A stretch of DNA of 64,000 bases, taken from NCBI GenBank assembly GCA_041567315.1, contig JBFGCA010000004.1:20922-84921 (forward strand). Reading direction: 5' to 3'. The notes under the pieces were generated by a model. The model did no database searches, was not told the origin of the DNA, and saw nothing but the letters and a program-made list of their open reading frames with translations. This document shows, one piece after another, positions 3,982 to 56,915 of the stretch. Source of the DNA: Thermoanaerobaculia bacterium. Lineage in GTDB: Bacteria > Acidobacteriota > Thermoanaerobaculia > Multivoradales > JAHEKO01. A program made the translations under genes and the position numbers. Each line of letters opens with the position of its first letter. Position 1 is the stretch's first letter.

Positions 3982-6900
3982 TCACGACGCTCTCTGCAGC
4001 TCGCCGGCGGGCTCGACGAAGCGGCCCAGCCGCCGCACCTGGGCGGTCTCGCCCAGCCTGAGCAGGCAGGGGAGGAGCACCAGGGTGAACAGGGTGCTGA
4101 CGCTCATGCCGCCGACGATCACTGCTGCCAGCCCGCGGTAGATGACGCTGCCGGCGCCGGGCAGGAGCAGCAGCGGCAGCATCCCGAAGATGCTGGTCAG
4201 GGTGCTCATGAAGATCGGCCGCAGCCGCACCCTGAGCGCCTGGTGGACCGCCTCGTCGCGGCGCGCCCCCTGGCGCTCGGCGGCGCGGGTCTGGTGGACC
4301 AGCAGGATGGCGTTGTTGACCACCAGCCCGAGCAGGATGATGAACCCGATCATGGTCAGCAGGTCGAGCGGCTGGAAGGTGACGAGGTTCAGCAGCCGGA
4401 GCGCGACCACCCCGCCCACCGTCGCCAGCGGCAGCGCCAGCACCACCAGCAGGCTGTCGCGGAGCGACCCGAAGAGCGCGCTCATCAGCAGGAACAGCAC
4501 CAGCAGCGCCACCAGGAAGTTCTGCGACATGGTGCGGATCGCCTGCCTCAAGCTGTCGGCGCTGCCGCCGTACTGGACGTTGCCGTCGGCCGGCAGGGCG
4601 GCGAGCAGCCGCGGCTCGACCTGCCCCTGCAGAATGTCGAGCGCCTCCTCGAGCGACATGCTGTCGGGCGGCGTCACCGCCAGGGTGACGGTGCGCCGGC
4701 GGTCGATGCGGTGGATGCTCGAGGGGCCCACCGTGCGCTCGATCCCCAGCAGCTCGCCGACCGGCAGCACCGCGCCCGAGGGGGTGGCCACCGGCAGCCC
4801 GGCCAGCTCCTCGGGGGTGCGCCACCCCTCGGCCCGCAGGATGACGTCGAGCCGCTTTTCGCCGTCGAAGTGCTCGCCCACCCACAGCCCGTCGCCCAGC
4901 GAGCGGATGACGTCGGCCACCGCCGGCCGCGTCCAGCCCACCTCGGCGATCCGCCGGTCGTCGGGGTGGAGCCGCAGCTCGGGCTCGGCCATCTCGGTCC
5001 CCGGCCAGGCCTGGGTCTGGGCGCCGGGGATCGCCTCGGCCACCACGTCGAGTCCGTGGGCGGCGGCCTCCAGCAGCGCCTCGCCCTCGGCCGACTGCAG
5101 GTGGACGGCGATCGAGCGGTCGCCGCCGAAGCCGCCGAACAGGTTGCCCTGGAAGACGAAGGCGCGGGTGTCGGGGAAGCCGGCCACCACCTCGTCGCGG
5201 ACGATCCGCTCGAGCTCCCTGACCCGGCCCTGGTCGAGCGCCCTCACCCCGACGGTGCCGCCGCCCGGCCACAGGATGAAGTAGTAGTTCTTGAGCGCCG
5301 GCTGCTTCTCGGCCCGCATGTAGGGCCCCAGCCGCTCGACCATCGGCTGGACGATCTCGCGCTCGATCGAGGCCAGGTTGGCCCCGGGCGGGAAGTTGAA
5401 GAAGCCGTCGACCGCGTCGCGCTTGACCGGTGGCAGGTAGTCGAGCTTGGGGATCAGGGTGATGGTGGTGGCGGCCGGCACCGCCATCAGCAGCGCGATC
5501 AGCGCCAGCCGGCGGCGCGGCCGATCGGTCCAGCCGATGATCCGGCCGGCGACGGCGCCCCAGAAGTCGGCGTGGGTGTCCTCCAGCCGGGCGTCGGTGA
5601 GCCAGCGCTTGGCGGCCGCCGGCAGGATCGTCACCGCCACCAGCAGTGAGATGGTCACCGCCATGGCGATGGTCAGCGCCAGGTCGGCGAAAAGCTGGCC
5701 CTCGACGTCTTTCAGGAAGATCACCGGCAGGAAGATGGCCACCGTGGTGGCGGTGGAGGCGATCAACGCCCCCCACACCTGCGAGGCGCCCTCGAGCGAG
5801 CCCTGGTGCGGCGAGCGCCCCTGCTCGCGAAGCCGGACGATGTTCTCGAGCACGATGATGGCGGCGTCGAGCACCATCCCCACCGCGAAGGCCAGCCCGG
5901 CCAGCGAGATGACGTTGAGCGAGCGGCCGCTCAGGTTCAAGACCACGAAGGTGGTGAGCAGCGAGATGGGGATGGCGGTGGCGACGATCAGGGTGGCGCG
6001 GAGCTGGCGCAGGAACCACCACAGGACGCCGATCGCCAGCAGCACCCCCAGCCCCAGGTTGGTGCGCACCAGCCCGATCGCCCGGTAGATGAAGACCGAG
6101 GCGTCGAAGCTCTGGGCGATGGTCAGGCCTTCCTCGGCCAGCGGCCCGTCGCGCAGCGCCGCCACCTCGGCCTTGACCCGGTTGAGGGTCTCCAGCACGT
6201 TGGCCTGGCTCTCGCGGTCGACGCGGATCGCCATCGCCGGGTTGCCGTTCTGGATCGAGAAGCCGGTGCGGTCGCCGCGCTTGACGCCGATGGTGGCGAC
6301 GTCGCCGAGCAGCACCGGCCGCCCCTCGCGCCAGTCGAGGACCAGCCCGGCGAGCTGCTCGGGGCCGTAGCGGCCGGCGAAGCGGAGGGTGTACTGCCGC
6401 CGGCCGACGTCCACGAAGCCGCCCGAGACGTCCTCGGCGCGGCCGGCCAGCGCCGCCACCCGCGGGATCTCGATCCCCAGCTCGGCGGCGCGGTAGGGGT
6501 CGAACTCGATCCGCAGCTCCTCGGGCGAGCCGGCGTTGACCTCGACGTGGGCCACCCCCTCGAGGTTCTCGAGCCGCGCCTTGACCACGTCCTCGACCAG
6601 TCGCTGGTAGTCCTCGATCGGCCCCGGGTTGCCGGGCAGCAGCTGGATGAAGAACCAGCTCAGCGCCTGGTTGGGCCCGCCGCCCCAGCCGCCGAGATGG
6701 ATGGTCGGCGGGGTGGCGTCGCGGGGCAGCGGCGGCAGCCGGTTGAGCCGGCTGATGACGTCGACCAGCGTCTGCTCCATGTCGGTGTCGAGCCCGAAGG
6801 TGAGGTTGATCCAGCTGCCGCCGGGGTTGGCGTTGGCGTTGAGCTCCTTCAGGCCCGGCAGCCCCTGGAGCACCTCCTCCTGGGGCTCGAGGATCTCGGC

Positions 6901-22961: not shown

Positions 22962-25424
22962 CTAGGCGTCGGGTCGCAGCACCAGGGTGTGGGCCACCGT
23001 CCCGGGCAGGAACGGGGCCGGCTCGCCGGCCGCCCAGGCCCGGTGGCCGGCCCGGTAGTGGGGAGAGAGCGGGTGGCCGCTCTGGCCGGCCGGCATGTGG
23101 AAGAGGCCCTCTTCCTCGCGGCCCGGCGCCACCACCAGGCGCTGGGAGGCGCCCTCGGCCGGCGCCTGGACGCGCGGCATGTGCGAGTCGCCGGGCAGCG
23201 GCTCGGCCGGCATGTCGAGCAGGCGGCCCGAACCGGGCAGGAAGCGGCTCAGCGGATGGCGGATCCTCGCGGTGTTGCGCTCCCCCCAGGTGCGGTCGGC
23301 GAGCCGGCCGCCGCGCTCGGCGAAATAGTCGAGCACGCCGTCGACGGCCGCCAGCAGCCGCTCCTCCCAGCTCGGCTCGGACGGCAGCAGCTCCGCCGGC
23401 TGTTCGTTCGCCAGCCGCCACAGCGCCGACTCGACCTGGTGCAGCTCGGCCAGGCGGAAGCGCTCGTCGGCCTGCCGGCAGGGGGCGGTGAGCTCGCCCA
23501 GCACCCGGTCGAGGAGCTCCAGCCGGAAGGCGCGGACCAGCCGGTAGCCGGCCGAGTCGACCGCCGCCCGGCCGCCCCAGTCCTCGACCAGGCGGCGCAG
23601 CTCGGCGCGCCCGTCGTGGCCGGCAGTGGCCTCGGGGGAGAGGACCTCGAGCAGCAGCCCCCGCCAGCGCTCCAGAAACAGCGCCCGGTCGTCGAGCTGG
23701 ACGGCCAGCAGGTCGCCTTCGGTGGCGCTCTCCAGCTCCAGCAGCCGGTCGCGGATCTGGCGGGCGCGGGCGCCCAGCACGTAGCCGCCGTGGCCGAGCC
23801 TGGCGAGCATCTCGCCGCCCACCACCCGGCTGTTGGCGGTCCAGATGCGCCCGCCCGGCGGGTCGGCGAGCCGCGGGTATTCGGCGGGGGCCAGATAGCC
23901 GTCCCAACCGCGGCCGCCGTCGGCCCAGGCCAGCGGCAGCCGGCCGTCGTGCCCGAAGCGGCGCGGCATCGGACCCATCACCGTCCAGCCGATGCGGCCA
24001 CCTGCGTCGGCCACCACGAAGTTCTGGGGCGGGGCGCCCACCCGGTTGGCGACCGCCATCGCCTCGTCGACGTCGCCGGCGCCCTCGAGCCCGACCAGCT
24101 CGAGATTCACCGCCGCGGCGTCGTGGGCGATCCAGCGCACCGCCCGCCGCCGCCCCTGGTGGTCGCGGTCGACAATCGGGCCCCACGGGGTCTCCTCGAC
24201 CTCCAGGACCTCGTCCTCGGCGCCGCGCACGCGCAGCACCTCGCGGTGGCGCTCGGGCAGGCGCGGTCCGTCGGGGGTGAGATAGGCGCCGCCGGCCTCG
24301 CCGTCCGGCGACTCGAGAACCACCAGGTCGATCCAGTCGCCGTAGGTGTTGGTGAAGCCCCAGGCCACGCGGCCGTTGCTGCCGACGATGACCAGCGGCC
24401 CGCCGGGCAGGGTGACGCCGGTGATCCGGCGCTCGCCGGCCGGGTCGCCGGGATCGGGGTAGACCAGCGAGGCGCGGTACCAGATGTTGGGCACCCCCAG
24501 CCCGAGGTGCATGTCGTTGGCGAGCATGGCCCCGCCGTGGGCGGTGTGGGCGCCGGCCACCGCCCAGTTGTTGGAGCCGGTGACCGCCGATTCTCCAGGC
24601 TCGGGTCCGCCGGGCCGGGGCCCGGGCGCTGCCGGCGCCGGCAGCGCGGGGACCGGCGGCAGCGGGAGCGGCGCCGCGACGGGGAGCGAAGCGGGTAGCG
24701 GGGGATCGGAAAGCGGCGTGCCGTCGATCGGAGCGTCCCAGCTCGTGCCCCAGGGGGCCAGGAAGTCGAGCCACTCGGGTCCCAGCAGGTCGTGGATCAG
24801 GCCCCACGCGGACTCCCGGCTGCCGTCCTCGTCGTGGAGCTGGAAGTACATGGCGTAGACCGCGAGCAGGGTGTCGGCCGGCCGCCAGGGCGCGGGCTCG
24901 GCGCCCAGCACCAGGTACTCGAACGGGGGCGCCTCCAGCGCCCACAGCCCGGCCCGGACCCCCTCGGCGTAGGCCTGGAGCAGCCGTTTGGTGACCGGGT
25001 CCGCGGTCTCTGCCAGCCGCTCGGCGCGCGCCCGGAAGCGATGCAGCCGGTGGGCGCGGTCGGCGGGCAGGGCCGCCTTGCCGAACAGCTCGGCCAGCTC
25101 GCCCGCCGCCTGCCGGCGCATCAGGTCCATCTGGAAGAAACGCTCTTGGGCGTGCAAAAACCCCAGCCCGCGCGTCAGGTCGAGCCGGTCCTCTGCGTAC
25201 ACCGTCGGGACCCCCAGGGAGTCCCGCGTGATCCGAACCGGCGCCGAAAGCCCCTCGACCGCGACCTCGCCGTCGAGCTGCGGCAGACTGGCCCGCAGCC
25301 GGCCGCGGCCCCACAGGGCCAGCCCGGCCGCCGTCGCCACCAGCAGCACCACGACCCCCAGCGCCAGCCGCCGCCACCGGCCGCCACCTGCTTGCGGCGC
25401 CCGCGGCGTCACCGGTTCGGCCAT
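22962..25424 (-). CDS. Penicillin acylase family protein (Ntn-hydrolase, peptidase S45)
   Basis: 820 aa. The spacer is followed by SNNWAV, the autoproteolytic N-terminal Ser of the beta subunit. Overall alpha-spacer-beta layout. Confidence 0.85.
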   Translation of the reverse strand: MAEPVTPRAPQAGGGRWRRLALGVVVLLVATAAGLALWGRGRLRASLPQLDGEVAVEGLSAPVRITRDSLGVPTVYAEDRLDLTRGLGFLHAQERFFQMDLMRRQAAGELAELFGKAALPADRAHRLHRFRARAERLAETADPVTKRLLQAYAEGVRAGLWALEAPPFEYLVLGAEPAPWRPADTLLAVYAMYFQLHDEDGSRESAWGLIHDLLGPEWLDFLAPWGTSWDAPIDGTPLSDPPLPASLPVAAPLPLPPVPALPAPAAPGPRPGGPEPGESAVTGSNNWAVAGAHTAHGGAMLANDMHLGLGVPNIWYRASLVYPDPGDPAGERRITGVTLPGGPLVIVGSNGRVAWGFTNTYGDWIDLVVLESPDGEAGGAYLTPDGPRLPERHREVLRVRGAEDEVLEVEETPWGPIVDRDHQGRRRAVRWIAHDAAAVNLELVGLEGAGDVDEAMAVANRVGAPPQNFVVADAGGRIGWTVMGPMPRRFGHDGRLPLAWADGGRGWDGYLAPAEYPRLADPPGGRIWTANSRVVGGEMLARLGHGGYVLGARARQIRDRLLELESATEGDLLAVQLDDRALFLERWRGLLLEVLSPEATAGHDGRAELRRLVEDWGGRAAVDSAGYRLVRAFRLELLDRVLGELTAPCRQADERFRLAELHQVESALWRLANEQPAELLPSEPSWEERLLAAVDGVLDYFAERGGRLADRTWGERNTARIRHPLSRFLPGSGRLLDMPAEPLPGDSHMPRVQAPAEGASQRLVVAPGREEEGLFHMPAGQSGHPLSPHYRAGHRAWAAGEPAPFLPGTVAHTLVLRPDA

Positions 25425-25504: not shown

Positions 25505-26874
25505 ATGACCCCCCGCCGCGCCGCCTTGCTGCTCGCCGCGCTGTTCCCCACCGCCTTGTCCGCCACCGACAAGCCGCTGACCGTGCCCTACGAGCAGTTC
25601 GTGCTGCCCAACGGGCTCAACGTCATCGTCCACTCCGACCACACGACGCCGGTGGTCAGCGTCAACATCCGCTACGACGTCGGCTCGGCTCGCGAGAGAC
25701 CGGGGCGCACCGGTCTGGCGCACCTCTTCGAGCACATCCTCTTCGAGGGCTCGGAGCACGTGCCCGAGGGGAAGTTCGACGAGTGGCTGGAGGCCGCCGG
25801 CGGCACCAACAACGGGGCTACCGACTCGGACCACACTTTCTACTGGCAGGACGTGCCGAGCAACGCGCTCGAGCTGGCGCTGTTCCTGGAGTCGGACCGC
25901 ATGGGCCATCTGCTGGCGGCGATGAGCCCCGCCAAGGTAGACGGCCAGCGCGACGTGGTCAAGAACGAGCGCCGGCAGTCGGTCGAGAACCGACCCTACG
26001 GTCTGGCCTGGGAGACCCTGGACGAGAATCTCTACCCGCCGGGGCATCCGTATCACCACCCGACGATCGGCTCGATGGAGGACCTGACCGCGGCCAGCTA
26101 CGAGGACGTGGTCGAGTTCTTCCGTGACTACTACGGTCCCGGCAACGCCACCCTGTCGGTGGCCGGCGACGTCGAGCCGGCGGCCGCCCGGCGGCTGGTG
26201 GAGAAGTGGTTCGGCGACGTGCCGCCGGGGCGCCCGCCGCCCGGCTCGAGACCGACAAGCGGCTGGTGCTGGAGGACCGGGTGCAGCTGCCGCGGCTCTA
26301 CGTCTGCTGGCTGTCGCCGCCGCGCTTCGCCCCCGGCGACGCCGAGCTCGACCTGGCCGCGGACCTGCTGGCCGGCGGCCGCAGCTCGCGGCTCTACCGC
26401 CGGCTGGTCTACGAGCTGGAGTCGGCGCAGGAGGTGGTGGCCTTCCAGCGCTCGCGGCGGTTCACCTCCACCTTCTGCATCCTGGCCACCGCCCGCCAGG
26501 GCCACGGGCTGGCCGAGCTGGAGGCCGAGATCTCGACCCAGATCGACCAGCTGGCCGACGACGGTCCGACCGAGCGCGAGCTGACCGGCGCCATCCATCG
26601 CTACGAGACCGAGTTCCTCGGCCGGCTCGAGCGGGTCGGGGGCTTCGACGGCAAGGCCGACCTGCTCAACCTGTACTACCTGGAGACCGCCAACCCCGAC
26701 TACTTCAACGAGGACCTCAGCCGCTACCGTGCCGTCGGGCCGGCCGACCTGCGGGCGGCGGTTCGCGCCCATCTGCGGCCGGCGGCCCGGGTGGTGCTCA
26801 GCGTGGTGCCGGAAGGCCGGCGCGGGTTGGCGGTGCCCGCCGGGGAGGAGGCGTCGATCGCTGCGGATGGCTGA
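25505..26874 (+). CDS. M16 family zinc peptidase (pitrilysin-like; HxxEH motif); reading frame apparently disrupted near 26240
   Basis: HLFEHILFEGS inverted zinc-binding motif. Homology continues in the +1 frame (ORF 26206..26874: ...ARLETDKRLVLEDRVQLPRLY) after a C-rich run (ccgccgccc). This indicates a 1-nt indel or a sequencing error. Confidence 0.7.
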
Positions 26875-26953
26875 ACCTCCGCGGCGGCGTCGGCCGCGGT
26901 TACCGGGCGATCGCGGGTCGGTGCGGCCGGCGCGACGCCGAACGGCCTGTTCG

Positions 26954-28615
26954 ATGGCCCTTTGGACGACCCGTCGCCGGGCGCCGCGGTGGATTCGCCG
27001 GGCGATTGCCCGGACCGTCCGGCGATCGACTGGCGCGGTTCTGACGAGGGCCGGTCTGCTGACCGCGGTCCTGTTCACCGGGGCGGCGCCGGTCGCGGTC
27101 GCCGCCCGGTCATCCCCGGAGACACCTGCCATCATGCCCGACAGCCTGCCCGCCACCCCCGACCGCAGCCGGCCGCCCGAGCTGGGGCCGCCGCCCGCCC
27201 TGTCGCTGCCGCCGCTCCAGCGTCTGCGGCTGGGCGGCGGGCTCGAGGTGGTGCTGCTCGAGAAGCACGAGGTGCCGCTGGTCGAGGTCGAGCTGCTGGT
27301 GCGCGCCGGTTCGGCCGGCGATCCGGCCGGCCGGGAGGGGCTCGCCGAGCTGACCGCCGCGCTGCTCGACAAGGGAGCCGGCGGCCGCGGCGCCCTCGAG
27401 ATCGCCGAGGCGGTGGAGTTCCTGGGCGCCGAGCTCCAGACCTGGTCCGACTACCACGACTCCGGGGTGCGGCTGTTCGCGCCGGTGGCGCGGCTGGCCG
27501 ACGGGCTGCCGCTGCTCGCCGACGTGGCGCTGCGGCCGGAGTTCGCCGCCGAGGAGCTGGACCGCCAGCGCCGCGACCGGCTGACCGAGCTGCTCAGGGC
27601 GCGCGACGAGCCGCGCACGGTGGCCGCCGTGCAGCTGGACCGGGCGCTCTACGGCGACCGGCATCCCTATGGCCGGCAGCCGGGGGAGGCCAGCCTGCGG
27701 TCGCTCGCCCCCGACGACCTGCGCGCCTTCCACCGCCGCCACTATCGGCCGGACAACGCCGTGCTGCTGGTGGTTGGCGACGTCACCGCCGCCGACCTGC
27801 TGCCGCTGCTGCAACGGGCCTTCGCCGGCTGGGCCGGGGCGTCCCAACCCCAGCAGGGTGGCGAGACGTCCGCGGAGACGGCGCCCGACCGAGAGGTGAC
27901 CGTCGAACCGGAGACGGCGGAGCAGACGCCCGTCGAGGCGGGGCCGGCGCCCGGCGGGGCGGGCGGCCGCCGCGTCTATCTCGTCGACATGCCTGGTGCC
28001 GCCCAGTCCGAGGTCCGCGTCGGGCGGGTGGGGGCGCCGCGCGATACGCCGGACTACTTTCCGCTGACGGTGATGAACACGGTGCTGGGGGCCTCCTTCA
28101 CCTCGCGGCTCAACTCCAACCTGCGCGAGGACAAGGGCTACGCCTACGGCGCCTACTCGCGCTTCCGCCTGCGCCGGCAGGCGGGACCGTTCTTCGCCGG
28201 CGCCGCCGTCCAGACCGACGCCACCGCCGCTACCGTCACCGAGATCCTGCGCGAGCTGGAGGCCATCCGCCGGATCACCCCCGAGGAGCTGGAGCGGGCC
28301 CGCAACTACGCCGCCCTCACCTATCCGCGCCGCTTCCAGTCGGTCGCCGGCATCACCGACGAGCTGGCCGAGCTGGTCCGCCACCGGCTGGCCGAGGACT
28401 TCTTCAACAGCTACGTCGAGCGGGTGCTGGCGGTCGGCCGCGAAGAGGCCGAGGCCGTCGCCGCCCGCTGGATCGACCCCGAAGACGTGGCGGTGGTGGT
28501 GGTCGGCGACCGCGCCCAGGTCGAGGCCGAGCTGCGCGCCCTGGGGATCGGCCCGGTCGAGACCCTGACCGTCGAAGACGTGCTCGGCCCGGCGCCCAGA
28601 CTCACCGACGGCTGA
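26954..28615 (+). CDS. M16 family peptidase-like protein lacking the HxxEH motif (probable non-catalytic partner subunit)
   Basis: Signal peptide (MALWTTRRRAPRWIRRAIARTVRRSTGAVLTRAGLLTAVLFTGAAPVAVAA). M16 N- and C-domain homology (RVYLVDMPGAAQSEVRVG...). In-frame ATG of ORF 26729..28615. Confidence 0.75.
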   Translation: MALWTTRRRAPRWIRRAIARTVRRSTGAVLTRAGLLTAVLFTGAAPVAVAARSSPETPAIMPDSLPATPDRSRPPELGPPPALSLPPLQRLRLGGGLEVVLLEKHEVPLVEVELLVRAGSAGDPAGREGLAELTAALLDKGAGGRGALEIAEAVEFLGAELQTWSDYHDSGVRLFAPVARLADGLPLLADVALRPEFAAEELDRQRRDRLTELLRARDEPRTVAAVQLDRALYGDRHPYGRQPGEASLRSLAPDDLRAFHRRHYRPDNAVLLVVGDVTAADLLPLLQRAFAGWAGASQPQQGGETSAETAPDREVTVEPETAEQTPVEAGPAPGGAGGRRVYLVDMPGAAQSEVRVGRVGAPRDTPDYFPLTVMNTVLGASFTSRLNSNLREDKGYAYGAYSRFRLRRQAGPFFAGAAVQTDATAATVTEILRELEAIRRITPEELERARNYAALTYPRRFQSVAGITDELAELVRHRLAEDFFNSYVERVLAVGREEAEAVAARWIDPEDVAVVVVGDRAQVEAELRALGIGPVETLTVEDVLGPAPRLTDG

Positions 28616-28703
28616 TCGCAGCCGGCTCCTCGGCCCGTCGGGCGCCGGACGGAGCGGCGAAGGGGCCGAGCCGGCCGACCGGGCACCGAGTCCAGCGGAC
28701 GGC

Positions 28704-28916
28704 TCAGGTCGCCGGGCGCCCGCGGAGCAGCCGCCCGGGCAGCGCCAGCAGCCCGCGCAGCAGGTCCAGGACGCCGTCGACGGCCAGCCCCAGCAGCCGG
28801 AAGGGCAGCAGCAGCAGCCAGACCAGCGGGTAGAGCACCAGTACCACAAGCGCCAGCGGCCAGCTCAGCACCAGCAGGATGCACCACAGCAGGAAATTGC
28901 GCACGGCGGTGCCCAT
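28704..28916 (-). CDS. Small hydrophobic membrane protein (hypothetical)
   Basis: Internal Met of ORF 28704..28961 (MGTAVRNFLLWCILLVLSWPLALVVLVLYPLVWLLLLPF...), two predicted TM helices. Could be spurious. Confidence 0.35.
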   Translation of the reverse strand: MGTAVRNFLLWCILLVLSWPLALVVLVLYPLVWLLLLPFRLLGLAVDGVLDLLRGLLALPGRLLRGRPAT

Positions 28917-29130
28917 CCTCCTAGCAGTACGCACCCGGTCCCGGCGGGTTTCGCTCGCCACGGCTGACGAGGGCGCCTCCAGCTCTCAGCCGTCCCCAGA
29001 GCTGGTGGCTGTCGAGCTGCTGGAGGATCTCCTCTTAGCAGGACCTTTCCTTGAGGCTGGCGTAGGCCCCGGGAAGTAGACCGCGGTCAGCTCGGCGCCG
29101 CCGTCCGCCGCCGCCACGACATGACGGTCC

Positions 29131-29198
29131 CGCGCCGGCTGCCCGTCGTCGAATAGGCGGGTGCTGAAGTAGCGCTCGCGCGGCGCCGTGACGAGATG
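29131..29198 (-). pseudogene. Displaced 3'-terminal remnant of a cysteine-synthase-like gene
   Basis: Minus-strand translation ...APRERYFSTRLFDDGQ... parallels the authentic C-terminus ...GDRGERYFSTRLFESE of the 30613..31506 gene. No start codon. Confidence 0.35.
29155..29179. repeat. Direct repeat copy A (aggcgggtgctgaagtagcgctcgc), identical to the cysteine-synthase 3'-terminal sequence
   Basis: 25/25-nt identity with 30629..30653. The imperfect similarity extends about 10 nt to each side. Confidence 0.7.
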
Positions 29199-30533
29199 TC
29201 AGCCGCCCAGGGTGACGACGAAGGCGGCGATCTTCATCGCGACTCGCATCACCGTTGGGGCGAGGTCCTCGACCGCCTTTGCCGCCTGTTTGAGGCCCTC
29301 AATCGAGAGGTCCAGGAATCCCCGATCGGGCTTTTCCTTGGTGGCCTCAGCGACCACCAGCTCGGCGGTCTTCGCTACTCGCTCGCCGTCCTCGGGTCTT
29401 TGCTCCGCCACCGTCTTGAGGGCCTCCTGTAGCTCGGCTATCAGTGCGGCAAGCCGCTCCTGCTGGTCGGCGGGCAGCATAGGTGCGTTTCGCACGATCT
29501 GGGTCACCCGCTCGAGGCGCGACTTGATGTTGACCGGACCCACGACATTCGACACCTGGATCTTGTCCTTCGACATGTCGACTCCTATCTGTTGCCCCAC
29601 CATGTTGAAGATTACATCGCGCGCCTGCGCCGAATAGCTCCCCTGTGTGCTGCCTTCTTGAATCAGTGCCCTCCGATAGCGGCGGACCTTCTCCTGGTCC
29701 TTCAGCTCGAGATAGTCCTCTTCGAACACGCTGACTTCATGGTTCACGGTCTGGCACAGCTCGTCGAGACGCGCCGCCGAGACCCTTCGAGGCTGGTACT
29801 CGTCGGGTACCCGCGAGTCGAATGCATGGTCGGGGTTGCGGCTCAGGAGGATCGTGGGCAGTAGCGCGGCGCGCACGGCGCCAAGCAGATAGAACTCGCG
29901 CGGTGACAGCTCTTCCACGAACGAGATGCAGAGGCTGGCCCTGGAAACCTGCTGCTCGTACGGGTGCTCGTAGGAGAGGTAGTCCACGCCCGCCGGCACC
30001 ATGATCGGACTGTATTTGAGCGTCTTGAGCTGCTCCTCGAGTCTGGCGCCGCCCCCCTCCGCCAGCGCCGAAGCTCCGATCACCAGGCACTGTCGCTGTC
30101 CCGAAGAGAGCTCGTAGGTCGGTGGGGGCTCGGTGCCTAGATAGGTCTTGAGAATGCGCAGCGCATGTCGGTGATTGCGGACCTCCCGCAACAGTTGACG
30201 GCGTGAGAACCGCCGCTGGAGCAGGGTGTCCGGTATCGAGTCGTCAGGTAGCACGTCCTCGACGAATATCAGAGCCGGCTTTCGGGCACGAACGCAGAGC
30301 GCGATCTCGTAGAGGATGTAGCTCGAGGGCTCGGGGTCTCGATACGGGAGGACCGCGATCATGCCGTCCGTATTGCGAAGATGGCGCTCGGCCTTGGCGG
30401 CGTTGAGATGGTCCTGATCGGCTGGCGGGTCGAGGCTGGGCGTCATGCCCTCGCTGAGCATGAGTTCCTGGAAGAACTCGTTGATGTCGTTGTCCGGTGG
30501 CCGGTAGCTGTGTGAGTAGTAGACGATGTACAT
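29199..30533 (-). CDS. Hypothetical protein on a lower-GC cassette: tandem TIR-like / flavodoxin-fold (SLOG-like) domains plus a C-terminal helical region
   Basis: 444 aa, starting at the ATG MYIVYYSHSY (the track ORF begins 2 codons earlier at a TTG). GC is about 55-63% against about 70% in the flanks. Rare codons (ata, cta, aga, agg). The N-terminal strand-helix pattern (YIVYYSH...DINEFFQEL...ILYEIALCVRARKPALIFVED) repeats in a second unit (CLVIGAS...LCISFVEELSPREFYLLGAVRAALLPTILL). Confidence 0.65.
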   Translation of the reverse strand: MYIVYYSHSYRPPDNDINEFFQELMLSEGMTPSLDPPADQDHLNAAKAERHLRNTDGMIAVLPYRDPEPSSYILYEIALCVRARKPALIFVEDVLPDDSIPDTLLQRRFSRRQLLREVRNHRHALRILKTYLGTEPPPTYELSSGQRQCLVIGASALAEGGGARLEEQLKTLKYSPIMVPAGVDYLSYEHPYEQQVSRASLCISFVEELSPREFYLLGAVRAALLPTILLSRNPDHAFDSRVPDEYQPRRVSAARLDELCQTVNHEVSVFEEDYLELKDQEKVRRYRRALIQEGSTQGSYSAQARDVIFNMVGQQIGVDMSKDKIQVSNVVGPVNIKSRLERVTQIVRNAPMLPADQQERLAALIAELQEALKTVAEQRPEDGERVAKTAELVVAEATKEKPDRGFLDLSIEGLKQAAKAVEDLAPTVMRVAMKIAAFVVTLGG

Positions 30534-30612
30534 CGGCAACGCCGTCCCGATTGGCTACCTGACCACCCAAGAGGTTGGGGGGTCGTGACGCGAGCCTGCC
30601 CGCATCGCGCGG

Positions 30613-31506
30613 CTACTCCGATTCGAACAGGCGGGTGCTGAAGTAGCGCTCGCCGCGGTCGCCGAAGACGACGACGACGTTGCCCTCGTCCATCTCGGCG
30701 GCGAGCTGTTGGGCGGCCCACAGGCAGGCGCCGGAGCTGAGGCCGGCGAGGATGCCCTCGCGGGCGGCGATCTCGCGGGTCACCCGGTAGGCGTCCTCTT
30801 CGGGGGCCTCGAAGGTGCGGTCCAGGAGCGAGCGGTCGTAGATCGGCGGCTGGTAGGTCTCCGAGGAGTGTTTGAGGCCGTCGATCTTGGCCCGCGGCTC
30901 GCCCCCCGGCTCGACGGCGCAGATGGCGGCCCGGATCCCGCGCTCGCGGAAGCACTCCGCGACCCCGGTCAGCGTGCCGCCGGTGCCGTAGCCGGCGACG
31001 AAGGCGTCGATCCGGCCGTCGAGGGCCGCCGCCACCTCGGCGCCGGTCTCCAGCCGGTGGACCTCGACGTTGTCGCGGTTCTCGTTCTGGTTGATGTAGA
31101 AGTAGCGGCCGGGCTCCGACTCGATCAGCTCCTTGGCGCCGAAGATGTGGCTGTCGGGGTCGTCCTTGGTGGTCAGCACCAGCTCGGCCCCCCAGTAGCG
31201 AAGCATCTTGCGGCGCTCCAGGGTCTTGTTCTCGAGCATGAAGAGCTTGAGCCGGTAGCCCTTGACCGCCGCCACCATCCCCAGCGCGATGCCGGTGTTG
31301 CCGCTGGTGGCCTCGACGATGGTCATCCCCGGCTCCAGCTCGCCGCGCCGCTCGGCCTCCTCGATCATGTAGCGGGCGATCCGGTCCTTGAGCGACCCGC
31401 TGGGGTTGGCCAGCTCCAGCTTGGCCCAGATCGCCACCCGCGGGTTGGGGCTCGACCGCGCCAGCCGCACCAGCGGCGTGTTCCCGATCTGCGCGAGGAC
31501 GTCCAT
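30613..31506 (-). CDS. Cysteine synthase (O-acetylserine sulfhydrylase, CysK/CysM family; PLP-dependent)
   Basis: 297 aa. PLP-lysine motif SGSLKDRIA, TSGNTGIALGMVAA, GTGGT loop. Confidence 0.9.
   Translation of the reverse strand: MDVLAQIGNTPLVRLARSSPNPRVAIWAKLELANPSGSLKDRIARYMIEEAERRGELEPGMTIVEATSGNTGIALGMVAAVKGYRLKLFMLENKTLERRKMLRYWGAELVLTTKDDPDSHIFGAKELIESEPGRYFYINQNENRDNVEVHRLETGAEVAAALDGRIDAFVAGYGTGGTLTGVAECFRERGIRAAICAVEPGGEPRAKIDGLKHSSETYQPPIYDRSLLDRTFEAPEEDAYRVTREIAAREGILAGLSSGACLWAAQQLAAEMDEGNVVVVFGDRGERYFSTRLFESE
30629..30653. repeat. Direct repeat copy B, lying within the last codons of the cysteine synthase gene
   Basis: Identical 25-mer. Encodes ...ERYFSTRLF of cysteine synthase on the minus strand. 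Confidence 0.7.
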
Positions 31507-35533: not shown

Positions 35534-38068
<2,535 letters not shown>

Positions 38069-41129: not shown

Positions 41130-41996
41130 ATGCCGCTTCGGCCGATGGCCTCTGGGACGGTGTCCTTCGGGCTGGTCGCGATTCCGGTGAAGCTGTATAC
41201 GACCGGGGAGAGCGCCAGCACGGTGCGCTTCAGCATGGTCCACCGCGACTGCGGGACGCGGGTCAAGTACCGCTACTACTGCCCGACCGACGACAAGCTG
41301 GTCGAGCGCGACGAGCTGGCCAAGGGCTACGAGTTCGCCAAGAACCAGTACGTGCTGTTCGACGACGACGAGCTCAAGGCGCTGCAGCCGGAGCCCACCA
41401 ACGCCATCGAGATCAGCGAGTTCATCCCGCTCACCGAGATCGACCCGCTGTTCTTCGACAAGTCCTACTACCTGGGGCCCGACCGCGGCGGCGCCAAGCC
41501 CTACCGGCTGCTGGCCGAGACCATGAAGCAGACCGGCCGCGCGGCGCTCGCCAAGTACGCCGCCCGCGGCAAGAACTACCTGGTGCTGCTGCGGCCGTTC
41601 GAGAGCGGGCTGGTGATGCAGCAGCTGCGCTACGCCGACGAGGTGCGGCCCTTCGCCGAGGTGCCGATCGACGACGCGGAGGTTAGCGAGGGGGAGCTCA
41701 AGCTGGCCCGCCAGCTCGTCGAGCAGAGCGCTACCGAGTCGTTCGACGCCGGCGCCTACGAGGACGAGGTCCGCAAGCAGGTGTGGGCGATGGTCGAGCG
41801 CAAGATCCAGGGCGAGGAGATCGTGGCGGCGCCGGAGGAGGCGCCCAAGGCGCAGATCATCGATCTGATGGAGGCCCTCAAAGCCAGTCTCGGCGAGGGC
41901 GGCGAGAGCAAGACGGCGCGCAAGCCGCCGCGGCGGGCCGCGGGTCGCGGCAGCGGCGGCAAGAAGGCGGCGGCCAAGCGGGCGCGCGCCAAATAA
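41130..41996 (+). CDS. ku: NHEJ DNA end-binding protein Ku
   Basis: 288 aa. Ku core (SGTVSFGLVAIPVKLYTTGE...) plus a basic lysine-rich C-terminal tail. Confidence 0.9.
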   Translation: MPLRPMASGTVSFGLVAIPVKLYTTGESASTVRFSMVHRDCGTRVKYRYYCPTDDKLVERDELAKGYEFAKNQYVLFDDDELKALQPEPTNAIEISEFIPLTEIDPLFFDKSYYLGPDRGGAKPYRLLAETMKQTGRAALAKYAARGKNYLVLLRPFESGLVMQQLRYADEVRPFAEVPIDDAEVSEGELKLARQLVEQSATESFDAGAYEDEVRKQVWAMVERKIQGEEIVAAPEEAPKAQIIDLMEALKASLGEGGESKTARKPPRRAAGRGSGGKKAAAKRARAK

Positions 41997-51934: not shown

Positions 51935-52557
51935 GCCGGCAGCCGCTCGGCCCGGTTGCGGTAGAGCTGGCGATCGACCACCGCCGCCATCGCCTCGACG
52001 TCGAGGTCGCGACCCAGGAAGTCGCGGATCCGGGTCGCCTCCGCCGCCGGCTCGTCGAGCACCCGGCGGTAGTCGAGCTCCAGGGACTCGAACCACGGCC
52101 GGTGCTTGAGCAGGTAGGCGGCGCGCCACAGGTCGCCCTCGAACAGCTCCATCATCCGCTCGTCGGTGGCGTCGGCGCTCTCGCCGCGGCGGGCCAGCAT
52201 CTTGGCCTGCGAGGCCAGCACCTCGCGCAGGTCGCGGCGCATCAGCAGGACCCGATAGTTGTTGTCGGCCGGCAGCTCCTTGAGCAGGTAGGAGATGATC
52301 TTGATCGCCTTGCCGCGGGCCGCCGCCAGCCAGTTCCAGTCGGTCTCCTTTGCCAGTTCCTTGACCCGCTCCAGCTCGAAATAGCCCTTGGGGTTGTCCT
52401 CGTCGGCGGTGCGGACGCCGTCGACCACCAGCTGCATGCCGCTGGCCTCGAGCATCTTCATGGTCATCGAAGTGCCCGACCGCGGCAGCCCCGAGACCAC
52501 CACGATGGGCTCACCGAAACGGGCCCGGCGATAGATGCGGCGCAGGTTCGGTGCCAT
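51931..52557 (-). CDS. Sulfotransferase family protein (PAPS-dependent)
   Basis: 208 aa. 5'-PSB-like loop VVVSGLPRSGTS. Stop overlaps the hpt start by 4 nt. Confidence 0.65.
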   Translation of the reverse strand: MAPNLRRIYRRARFGEPIVVVSGLPRSGTSMTMKMLEASGMQLVVDGVRTADEDNPKGYFELERVKELAKETDWNWLAAARGKAIKIISYLLKELPADNNYRVLLMRRDLREVLASQAKMLARRGESADATDERMMELFEGDLWRAAYLLKHRPWFESLELDYRRVLDEPAAEATRIRDFLGRDLDVEAMAAVVDRQLYRNRAERLPA

Positions 52558-52635
52558 CCTCCAGCCTCGTGCGTTATGATAGCAATCCTCGCCTCGACGC
52601 CCCGCGTCACGACGTACCGCGGGCACCCCCTCGGA

Positions 52636-54896
<2,261 letters not shown>

Positions 54897-54900
<4 letters not shown>

Positions 54901-56915
54901 CCGATCGATCCAACCGACGGCAGGGGAGCATCCGGGCGGCGAGTCGGGCGCGCTGGCGGCTGCCGGTCATGGCGGTGCTGGCGATCCTGGGCGCGGCGGG
55001 CATGGCGGCGCTCTCCTGCGCCGGCGGCGCCGCCTCAACGGCGGCCGGCCAGCGGGTCATCGTCCTCGGCTTCGACGGCATGGACCACGAGGTCGTGCGC
55101 CGGCTGATGGCCGAGGGCCGGTTGCCCAACATGCGCAAGCTGGCCGAGCGCGGGAGCTTCGCGCCGCTCGAGACCTCGGTGCCGCCGCAAAGCCCGGTGG
55201 CCTGGTCCAACTTCATCACCGGCATGGACTCCGGAGGGCACGGCATCTTCGACTTCGTCCACCGCGATCCGGCGACCATGCTGCCGTACCTGTCGACCAG
55301 CCGCACCGAGGCCCCCGACCGCTTCCTCGAGCTGGGCCGCTGGCAGGTGCCGCTTTCGGCCGGCAAGGTGGAGCTGCTGCGCCACGGCAAGCCGTTCTGG
55401 CAGGCGCTCGAGGAGCACGGCGTGGAGACCACCATCGTCCGCATGCCGGCCAACTTCCCGCCCTCGGGCGAGGCCACCCGCGAGCTGTCGGGGATGGGGA
55501 CCCCCGATCTGCTGGGTACCTCCGGCACCTTCTCGTTCTACACCTCGGAGCTGTTCGCCTTCCAGGGGCAGGACGTCACCGGCGGCAACGTCTACGAGGT
55601 CTACCCCTACGAGGGCAGGGTCGAGGCCAGCCTCCACGGTCCCGACAACCCGTTCCGCAAGGAAAAGGAGAAGGTGGAGCTGCCGTTCACCGTGTTCATC
55701 GACCCGGCCGAGCCGGTGGTCAAGCTGGAGGTCGGGGGCGAGGAGCTGGTGCTGGCGGTCGGGGAGTGGAGCGACTGGATGGCGGTGGACTTCCCGCTGG
55801 CGCCCACCCAGAGCCTGCGCGCCGCGGTGCGGTTCTACTTGAAGCAGGCCCACCCCGAGCTCGAGCTCTACGCCTCGCCGCTCAACATCGACCCGCTGGC
55901 GCCGGCGATGCCGATCTCGACGCCGGGCTCGTGGGCCGCCGATCTGGCCGAGGGCACCGGCGGCCGCTACTACACGCAGGAGATGCCGGAGGACACCAAG
56001 GCGCTGTCGAACGGCGTGTTCACCACCGAGGAGTTCCTGGCCCAGGCGCGGATCACCGGCGAGCAGTTCATCGACCAGTACTGGTGGGTCCTCGACCGCT
56101 TCGAGCGCGGGCTGCTGTTCTACTACTTCGGCAACCTGGACCAGACCTCGCACATGATGTGGCGGGCGATGGACCCGGAGCACCCGGCCTACGACCCCGA
56201 GAAGGACGGACCGTTCGCCGGCGAGATCGAGAGGATCTACGAGCAGCTCGACGGCGTGGTCGGCCAGACCCTCGAGCGGATGGGCGAGGACACCCTGCTG
56301 GTGGTGATGTCGGACCACGGTTTCACCAGCTGGCGGCGCGCCTTCCACCTCAACAGCTGGCTCCGGGACAACGGCTACGTGGTGCTCAAGGACCCGCGAC
56401 GGAGGGACGATCCGGGGCTGTTCCTCAACGTCGACTGGACGCGGACGCGGGCCTACGCGCTGGGTCTCAACGGCCTCTATCTCAACCTCCAGGGTCGCGA
56501 GAGCCGCGGCATCGTTCCCCCCGGCGAGCGGCAAGCGCTGATGGAGGAGATCGCCGGCAAGCTGCTCGAGGTGATCGACCCGGCGACCGGCCAGCCGGCG
56601 ATCACCAGGGTCTACCGCCGCGAGCAGGTCTACCGCGACCGCGGGCAGCTCGAGATCGGTCCCGACCTGCTGGTCGGCTACGCCAAGGGCACCCGCGGCT
56701 CCAACCAGTCGGCGCTCGGCGAGTTCCCGCCCGAGGTGATCGTCGACAACGACGAGCCGTGGAGCGGCGACCACTGCATGGACCACGAGGCGGTGCCCGG
56801 CATCCTGCTGACCAGCCGGCCGCTGGCCCGGCCGGCCGCCAGCCTCAAGGAGCTGGCGGCGTCGATCCTGGCCGAGTTCGGGGTCGGCGGGTTTCCGGCC
56901 GCGGCGGCCGGCTAG
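54897..56915 (+). CDS. Alkaline-phosphatase-superfamily protein (NPP-like), paralog of the upstream gene
   Basis: Same motif set (LGFDGMDH, PQSPVAWSNFITG, GGHGIFDF, VMSDHGF, WSGDHC). Start overlaps the upstream stop (ATGA). Confidence 0.75.

Follow-up and report, generated by a model that had tools for sequence, protein, structure and literature searches.

Within a window of 64,000 nucleotides (nt) from a Thermoanaerobaculia bacterium (GenBank assembly GCA_041567315.1, contig JBFGCA010000004.1, positions 20,922 to 84,921; all coordinates below are those of the window unless a locus is named), a single open reading frame (ORF) of foreign composition is located at the 3' end of the cysteine synthase gene cysK, between two direct copies of that gene end. 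We suggest that this segment is probably a horizontally acquired one-gene cassette, which would have been inserted as a circle by a recombinase acting in trans and is similar to the cis-mobilizable elements (CIMEs). That foreign DNA entered by a Campbell-type insertion, the broader part of this proposal, we regard as very probable. The two copies share a perfect 25-mer, AGGCGGGTGCTGAAGTAGCGCTCGC, with starts 1,474 bp apart. A first-pass annotation of the same DNA had reported this repeat, and its two copies (29155-29179 and 30629-30653) are indeed the only ones: the 64-kb window contains no third copy with up to three mismatches, such that the repeat is no common motif, and no match arose in 100 shuffles of the sequence (0/100).

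The similarity extends beyond the core, as the annotation had also claimed. Without gaps it covers 44 nt at 84% identity (29136-29179 versus 30610-30653), whereas with three 1-nt gaps it covers approximately 46-49 nt (29149-29194 versus 30623-30671; z = 19.5 against shuffles). The proximal copy comprises the last codons of cysK, in agreement with the earlier description, and encodes (G)ERYFSTRL. In the distal copy the 25-nt core is perfect, but the part upstream of it carries three 1-nt deletions, so that 29180-29194 is a degenerate, frameshifted version of the cysK codons VVFGDRG. Such an indel-bearing arm beside a perfect core would be expected if the arm was a degenerate mimic already present on the incoming element. 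Flanking sites with a common core, as in the attL and attR of integrative genetic elements and of CIMEs, are therefore present at both ends. A further cysK-like copy, which would mark an older element spanning the neighboring M16 peptidase genes, was searched for and not found. The positions of these and other features are given in Table 1.

Table 1. Features of the cassette and its target in the window, followed by the family loci at which the homologous gene is flanked by direct repeats.
Feature or locus	Position	Strand	Remarks
cysK/cysM-type cysteine synthase gene, target, intact	30613..31506	minus	PALP 1e-64; TIGR01136 positions 3-299 of 299
Direct-repeat core, cysK-proximal copy (attL-like)	30629..30653		exact 25-mer; minus strand encodes (G)ERYFSTRL of cysK
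Direct-repeat core, distal copy (attR-like), displaced cysK 3' fragment	29155..29179		exact 25-mer
Whole similarity span, proximal copy	30610..30671		ungapped 30610-30653 (84%) plus gapped alignment 30623-30671
Whole similarity span, distal copy	29136..29194		ungapped plus gapped alignments
Replacement cysK end, cassette side of the core	30613..30628	minus	codons (L)FESE plus stop
Leader, cysK stop to cargo start	30534..30612	minus	79 nt; cassette-borne; not conserved at other loci
Cargo gene	29199..30533	minus	444 aa (446 aa from TTG at 30539); sole ORF between the repeats; foreign codon usage
Sequence past the distal core, presumed former downstream flank of cysK	28985..29154	minus	LFDDGQPARD... 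in the cysK frame, 58 codons
Window			repeat 46-49 nt; z 19.5
L094			repeat 84 nt; z 38
L098 (= L099, L101, L141-144)			repeat 40 nt; z 18-24
L104			repeat 60 nt; z 15
L091			repeat 52 nt; z 10
L092			repeat 45 nt; z 7-8
L107 (= L108), wider flanks			repeat 101 nt around a 4-kb unit including IS110; score 112

The segment between the repeats is compositionally foreign. Its GC content is 63.0%, compared with 72.6% for the window, and falls to 58.5-59.5% in the lowest 200-nt windows, while GC at third codon positions (GC3) is 0.80 in the cargo ORF versus 0.90-0.98 in host genes (0.98 in cysK). Codons ending in A or T make up 19.8% of the cargo ORF but 5.2% (standard deviation 1.6, maximum 8.1) of 25 host genes, which places the cargo approximately nine standard deviations above the host mean. 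The first-pass annotation had singled out a low GC content and a lone ORF using otherwise avoided codons, and the counts bear this out: ATA and CTA each occur four times in 445 cargo codons but once in 13,580 host codons, and AGA together with AGG is likewise enriched. The cassette is compact, consisting of the 79-nt leader, the ORF and the site, with the cysK-like mimic beginning just 5 nt past the cargo stop codon. No sigma-70 consensus was detected in the leader, scans for promoters, terminators and hairpins around the cassette returned nothing, and neither remnant genes nor pseudogenes lie between the repeats.

As the annotation had stated, integrases and transposases are missing from the window: none of its 42 ORFs contains a Pfam domain of either kind or a tyrosine recombinase domain, no IntI-attI platform is present, and the window contains no tRNA. 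The integrase gene that an integrative genetic element carries internally is accordingly lacking, the only ORF having a fold like that of nucleoside 2-deoxyribosyltransferases (NDT) and TIR proteins and no Pfam match; the absence of integration and transfer genes is as in a CIME. An insert flanked by direct repeats could also arise by a long target-site duplication, produced by a transposase or by end-joining repair of a widely staggered break. The machinery for the latter is encoded in the window, where LigD (35534-38068, minus strand, with phosphoesterase, ligase and primase-polymerase domains) lies near Ku (41130-41996, plus strand) to form a non-homologous end-joining pair. However, the features of an insertion sequence or transposon, namely a transposase, terminal inverted repeats and a perfect target duplication of fixed length, were not found; no inverted repeats were detected at the cassette ends, the perfect core with indels at one edge is unlike a fresh duplication, and the repeat edges are imperfect. 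Moreover, the repeat varies in length over the loci of the cargo family and part of it travels with the cassette at two of them (L092 and L098, see below), making target duplication very unlikely.

Comparison with related loci supports an insertion. At 16 related Thermoanaerobaculia/Acidobacteriota loci with sufficient downstream DNA, cysK has a single 3' end and no cassette; no second cysK end is found within up to 6 kb downstream and none of these loci encodes the cargo protein. The comparison that the annotation had proposed thus gives the predicted picture, with the segment absent and one copy of the repeat in each relative, although these loci belong to genomes in which CysK is at most 83% identical and downstream synteny differs, the nearest CysK relatives being metagenome-assembled genomes of Thermoanaerobaculia/Acidobacteriota at ≤83% amino-acid identity. 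The core DNA is near-invariant among the relatives and represents the most conserved DNA stretch of cysK. In five relatives cysK abuts an orthologue of the penicillin-amidase gene located at 22962-25424, whereas these genes are separated in the window by the cassette, a 70-aa membrane ORF and two genes for M16 peptidases. Because these five relatives join cysK to the same orthologue, the flanks of the cassette constitute one neighborhood and a chimeric join is unlikely. We note that the two M16 peptidase genes and the membrane ORF (25505-28961) show the region 3' of cysK to vary beyond the cassette itself.

The same comparison bears on a possible assembly artefact, in which lower-GC DNA of another organism would have been joined at a shared 25-mer. 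The source is a metagenome-assembled genome and the cysK stretch by the repeat is common to co-occurring relatives; eight k=31 Logan contigs from different samples stop there, at 30664-30677, which is 11-24 nt past the repeat. Yet two other NCBI assemblies and several k=31 Logan contigs carry the same sequence across both junctions, and the latter, for which k exceeds the repeat length, extend from 30669 across the two repeats and as far as the M16 gene. A chimera would, in addition, require the 25-mer to be present twice in the foreign DNA, and with cysK linked to the 22962-25424 gene in relatives we consider an artefact extremely unlikely. The contig ends at 30664-30677 were also considered as a sign of polymorphism, but are better explained by 30-mers shared with the cysK genes of co-occurring relatives: this stretch is near-identical in related species and thereby creates a branch point in the assembly graph at which contigs break. 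In the otherwise 99.9% identical locus L002 (GCA_041609795.1), cysK (5028-5921) is split into two called ORFs (64 and 221 aa), which appears to reflect a frameshift or sequencing error.

The target gene remains intact. CysK is full length, with a C-terminus that reads ...GERYFSTRLFESE*, and its in-frame end, LFESE and the stop codon, lies on the cassette side of the core, consistent with the replacement 3' end that the annotation had postulated and with a target whose function is preserved by a fragment carried in attP. We propose that a circle would have entered the chromosome by one crossover within the 25-nt identity block that it shared with the cysK 3' end. Such a circle would have carried its own mimic of the cysK end, approximately 65 nt in length, of which the degenerate, frameshifted part before the crossover point would now lie at 29180-29194, while the part past the crossover (LFESE-stop, 30613-30628) would now terminate cysK and keep the enzyme intact. 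The former chromosomal continuation would thereby have moved 1,474 bp further downstream. Direct copies of the target, the far one with a degenerate extension, point to single-crossover insertion of a circle rather than to double-crossover replacement or a co-transferred neighbor fragment. The scheme predicts an empty-site junction of ...GGCGACCGCG-GCGAGCGCTACTTCAGCACCCGCCT-ATTCGACGACGGGCAG... and a circle junction of ...CATCTCGTCACGGCGCCGC-GCGAGCGCTACTTCAGCACCCGCCT-GTTCGAATCGGAGTAGCCGCG....

The likeliest catalyst of this crossover would be a tyrosine-type integrase that another element provides in trans. Given a Campbell-type insertion, we put this at not quite an even chance, with a decayed island distinctly less probable and RecA acting on short homology less probable again. 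The first-pass annotation had described a site-specific element integrated into a gene 3' end; the insertion and the supplied end stand, but the site-specific part is not separable from homology-driven recombination on the present evidence. The cargo gene also has homologues at other loci.

For every full-length homologue with usable flanks, the 700 nt upstream were compared with the 700 nt downstream. Flanking direct repeats are present at 7 of 24 distinct loci, comprising the window, L091, L092, L094, L098, L104 and L107, and measure 40-101 nt outside the window (Table 1). Of 634 control placements taken from this DNA, 2.5% score ≥36, the lowest positive score, and most of these are explained by tandem paralogues; a binomial estimate for 6 of 24 loci is approximately 2e-5. 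The top scores of the control scan come from the window itself, where two adjacent paralogous Phosphodiest-family genes (52102-54900 and 54897-56915, plus strand) contain blocks of 75-79% identical DNA located 2,135-2,144 nt apart. The repeat-bounded units of the family are 1.5-2.3 kb in length and correspond to one gene, except for the 4-kb unit of L107, to which an IS110 element is added. In L107 (37-4174) the repeat bounds, besides the cargo homologue, an IS110-family transposase gene and an unknown ORF of 233 aa, with HigB/HigA directly after.

In L098 the upstream copy combines 22 nt of flank with the final 18 nt of tRNA-Leu(CAG), which is itself intact, and a degenerate T-arm stands in front of the downstream copy. 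The cassette at tRNA-Leu (protein P0019) is present in at least 65 sample blocks. The degenerate arm of L098 (GTTCTAGAATCGTC...) recurs behind the homologue in L092, where it ends instead in GGGCGCGCCA, the acceptor end of a tRNA-Arg(TCG) located 3.2 kb upstream. The L092 cassette carries a second site of this kind at its left edge, as does L096, and in L097 the cargo homologue lies 146 nt behind a tRNA-Arg(CCG). L092, L096 and L098 share cassette DNA from approximately -190 to +150 in different genomic contexts, with the site at the left edge in all three. Hence the arm is carried along by the cassette, and the end beyond it is that of the local host. A cassette-borne arm joined to a host-specific end would be the product of a crossover at a defined point between an element-borne and a chromosomal site. 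In L092 (4469-9456), tRNA-Arg(TCG) is followed by a 3.2-kb stretch in which three ORFs are located, one of them for an α/β-hydrolase, and then by the cargo homologue, which has a pseudo-tRNA 3' end on either side; this arrangement looks like a tandem array of integrase-less units.

The surroundings of the homologues are mixed. Mobile or defence genes are neighbors at L091 (AbiEi and IS21), L153 (a reverse transcriptase and AIPR) and L107 (HigBA), while some of the remaining family loci lie among housekeeping genes. No integrase is encoded within 8-10 kb of the homologues in L092, L093, L141, L151 or L152. Conserved non-coding motifs shared between cassette lineages were not found outside the L092/L096/L098 lineage, and an Rfam scan of the family loci returned tRNAs only. 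With respect to possible vehicles, neither the degenerate att pattern nor the cargo family matched viral contigs, and among plasmids the family gave a single distant match, in a Hymenobacter plasmid.

The recurrence across the family favors the proposed mobilization in trans over the decay of a larger island, two options that the annotation had left side by side. In the latter case a multi-gene element with its own integrase would have inserted at the cysK 3' end and been deleted down to one selected cargo gene and both att sites, and would now be immobile. CIMEs arise in this way in the textbook account (PMC5704250), islands often contain degraded elements and scattered partial tRNAs, and the window lacks a recombinase. 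Against such an origin, however, remnant-like DNA is absent, the spacers on the two sides of the ORF measuring only 79 and 5 nt; repeats bound this one gene at six or seven unrelated sites, which would demand repeated clean reduction to one gene; and the perfect 25-nt core speaks against great age. We regard a decayed island as rather unlikely overall. Since the one-gene unit recurs at unrelated sites, mobilization in trans is favored, albeit not proven.

Insertion without any integrase would proceed by RecA-dependent recombination of a circle with cysK over the 25-49 nt of homology, with excision as the reverse reaction. In E. coli, a minimum of approximately 25 nt is usually quoted for RecA-dependent exchange, and the exact block in the window lies near this limit. 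The target is also the part of cysK that is best conserved, with near-identity in many relatives and with Logan contigs that break there, and the length of the repeat ranges from 40 to 101 nt across loci, unlike a fixed att core. On the other hand, recombination on such short homology is inefficient, and the cassette-borne arm in L098 and L092 is too degenerate for homologous pairing. At both loci cassette sequence gives way to host sequence just where the T-stem meets the acceptor, which suggests a defined crossover site. We consider a RecA-dependent origin improbable.

Several observations weigh against insertion of a circle in trans. Flanking repeats are lacking at 17 of the 24 family loci, and two of the positives are doubtful, as L091 abuts an IS21 element and the repeat of L104 is possibly a dispersed element. 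At cysK itself, the displaced copy is stop-free: the sequence past the distal core reads on in the cysK frame for 58 codons, whereas all of 120 orthologues (120/120) end 3-17 residues after ERYFST. With a GC3 of 0.77, this stretch (28985-29154) is non-coding, and no homology to it was found in relatives. Thus, either the old cysK stop has been lost or the distal flank is not the original cysK end. In addition, 13 of the 120 orthologues end in RLFE..., including the closest one (RLFE*) and one that ends in RLFESEPSR*, such that RLFESE is ordinary for the lineage and the protein sequence cannot tell which end is native. An argument from 17 relatives that RLFD of the displaced copy is the native end and RLFESE atypical was dropped for the same reason. 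Finally, the searches yielded neither a near-identical empty site nor a circle junction nor a cognate integrase, the closest other CysK being only 83% identical; contigs with the cargo, the M16 gene or the 70-aa ORF, members of the CysK cluster and a hypothetical CysK bearing the displaced tail were looked up, and no empty site emerged. No integrase-bearing element was found at cysK in any relative or in viral contigs.

The cargo protein consists of two NDT/TIR-like domains followed by a helical C-terminal module, with a total length of approximately 440 aa, and the N-terminal domains adopt a flavodoxin-like three-layer fold matching solved NDT or TIR structures. It is 100% identical to P0001 and has no match in Pfam, NCBIfam or PHROG. 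Its family comprises 126 matches at 46-69% identity, and in the representative library 74 clusters reach E ≤ 1e-30; the members occur here and there in Acidobacteria, Paraburkholderia, Variovorax and Pseudorhodoferax. Glu76, within the motif S-x-Y-I-x-Y-E-I, is invariant in 31 sequences, and we infer that it is equivalent to the catalytic Glu of NDT/TIR enzymes. The C-terminal module (residues 317-442, window 29205-29582) also occurs in the representative library alone, in proteins of approximately 125 aa, or fused to many unrelated N-termini, and provides the only match of the cargo to a defence database, a weak PADLOC hit to PDC-M14B (residues 317-427, E = 5e-8). Literature searches returned no papers on DUF4404 or PDC-M14. 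A role in defence or nucleotide processing is a guess. The same fold is shared by TIR/NDT-like proteins such as ThsB, the TIR of SARM1, DNPH1/Rcl, BcmB and MilB, but there is no family match to these at the sequence level, and the tandem arrangement together with the helical C-terminal module has not been described.

The cargo could, in principle, itself be a new recombinase guided by the target mimic that it carries, making the unit an autonomous one-gene element. One gene and one site are indeed the only conserved parts, and lineages occur at different targets (cysK, tRNA-Leu and tRNA-Arg). Its fold is not a recombinase fold, however, which speaks against this function and makes such an element extremely unlikely. 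Returning to mobilization in trans, we tentatively extend it to the family as a whole: the cargo genes may travel as minimal integrase-less circles in which the sole cis-acting part is a mimic of the 3' end of some conserved host gene (cysK, tRNA-Leu or tRNA-Arg), with the crossover carried out wholly in trans by resident integrases or even by RecA, and with new targets reached by exchange of the mimic.

Integrative elements are usually found via their integrases, and att-flanked units without one therefore go uncounted. Should the units have kept their mobility, they could spread single adaptive genes with recombinases borrowed from other elements, and the target mimic would be the feature to look for. 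If circles with exchanged mimics exist, single and possibly defence-related genes would move in a manner similar to integron cassettes but without an integron. If the repeats are merely scars, the segment would be an ordinary small genomic islet, yet one that marks the GERYFST-coding stretch of cysK as an integration site. In either case, the example comes from a poorly studied phylum, and the literature searched contained no description of a clean one-gene case at cysK.

The kind of structure is known, namely an islet that is flanked by att sites, lacks an integrase and lies at the 3' end of a conserved gene, and what is new is the cysK target, the host lineage and the uncharacterized cargo. 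The closest counterparts are CIMEs, which retain attL and attR but have lost their integration genes (PMC5704250), and of which the streptococcal examples are att-flanked remnants that an incoming integrative conjugative element (ICE) or integrative mobilizable element (IME) can mobilize after accretion (PMC5704250). Like these, the window unit has attL/attR-like direct repeats that include the target 3' end and lacks integration and transfer genes, and a tandem array of such units is also seen in the related locus L092. It differs in comprising one gene and 1.47 kb, in its Thermoanaerobaculia-like genome and its cysK target, and in a mobility that is putative, the array behind tRNA-Arg in L092 being the one indirect hint of mobilization in cis after accretion. 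CIMEs derive from ICEs or IMEs by decay, whereas no remnant of a parent element is visible between the repeats and the recurrence of the one-gene unit argues against simple decay.

In integrative elements, the tRNA or protein-coding target is normally restored by a piece of it kept in attP, and tandem arrays are formed (PMC7192596). As in the Islander/TIGER elements (PMC7192596) and tycheposons (bioRxiv 10.1101/2020.12.28.424599), the target of the window unit is kept functional by a carried fragment and the displaced fragment lies at the far end, with the identity block at the gene 3' end; in L098 this block begins within the tRNA T-arm. Such elements are, however, defined by at least one integrase and typically exceed 2 kb, whereas the unit, the window and the surroundings of most homologues encode no integrase. 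Integron cassettes resemble the unit in having one ORF, one site and little spare DNA, and a circle and a recombinase in trans are presumed for both. They differ in that the unit has no attC-type palindrome (folding of 29120-29215 is no better than that of shuffles, z = 0.57) and no IntI/attI, uses a mimic of a host gene end as its site and is not seen in long arrays. IMEX elements and pdif modules, which borrow XerC/XerD, are likewise small, lack their own recombinase and are bounded by copies of a host recombination site, but the repeats of the cargo family are, by inspection, gene or tRNA 3' ends that vary by locus rather than 28-bp dif-like sites. The recurrence of a single gene between target-derived repeats points to a possible class of one-gene cassettes mobilized in trans.

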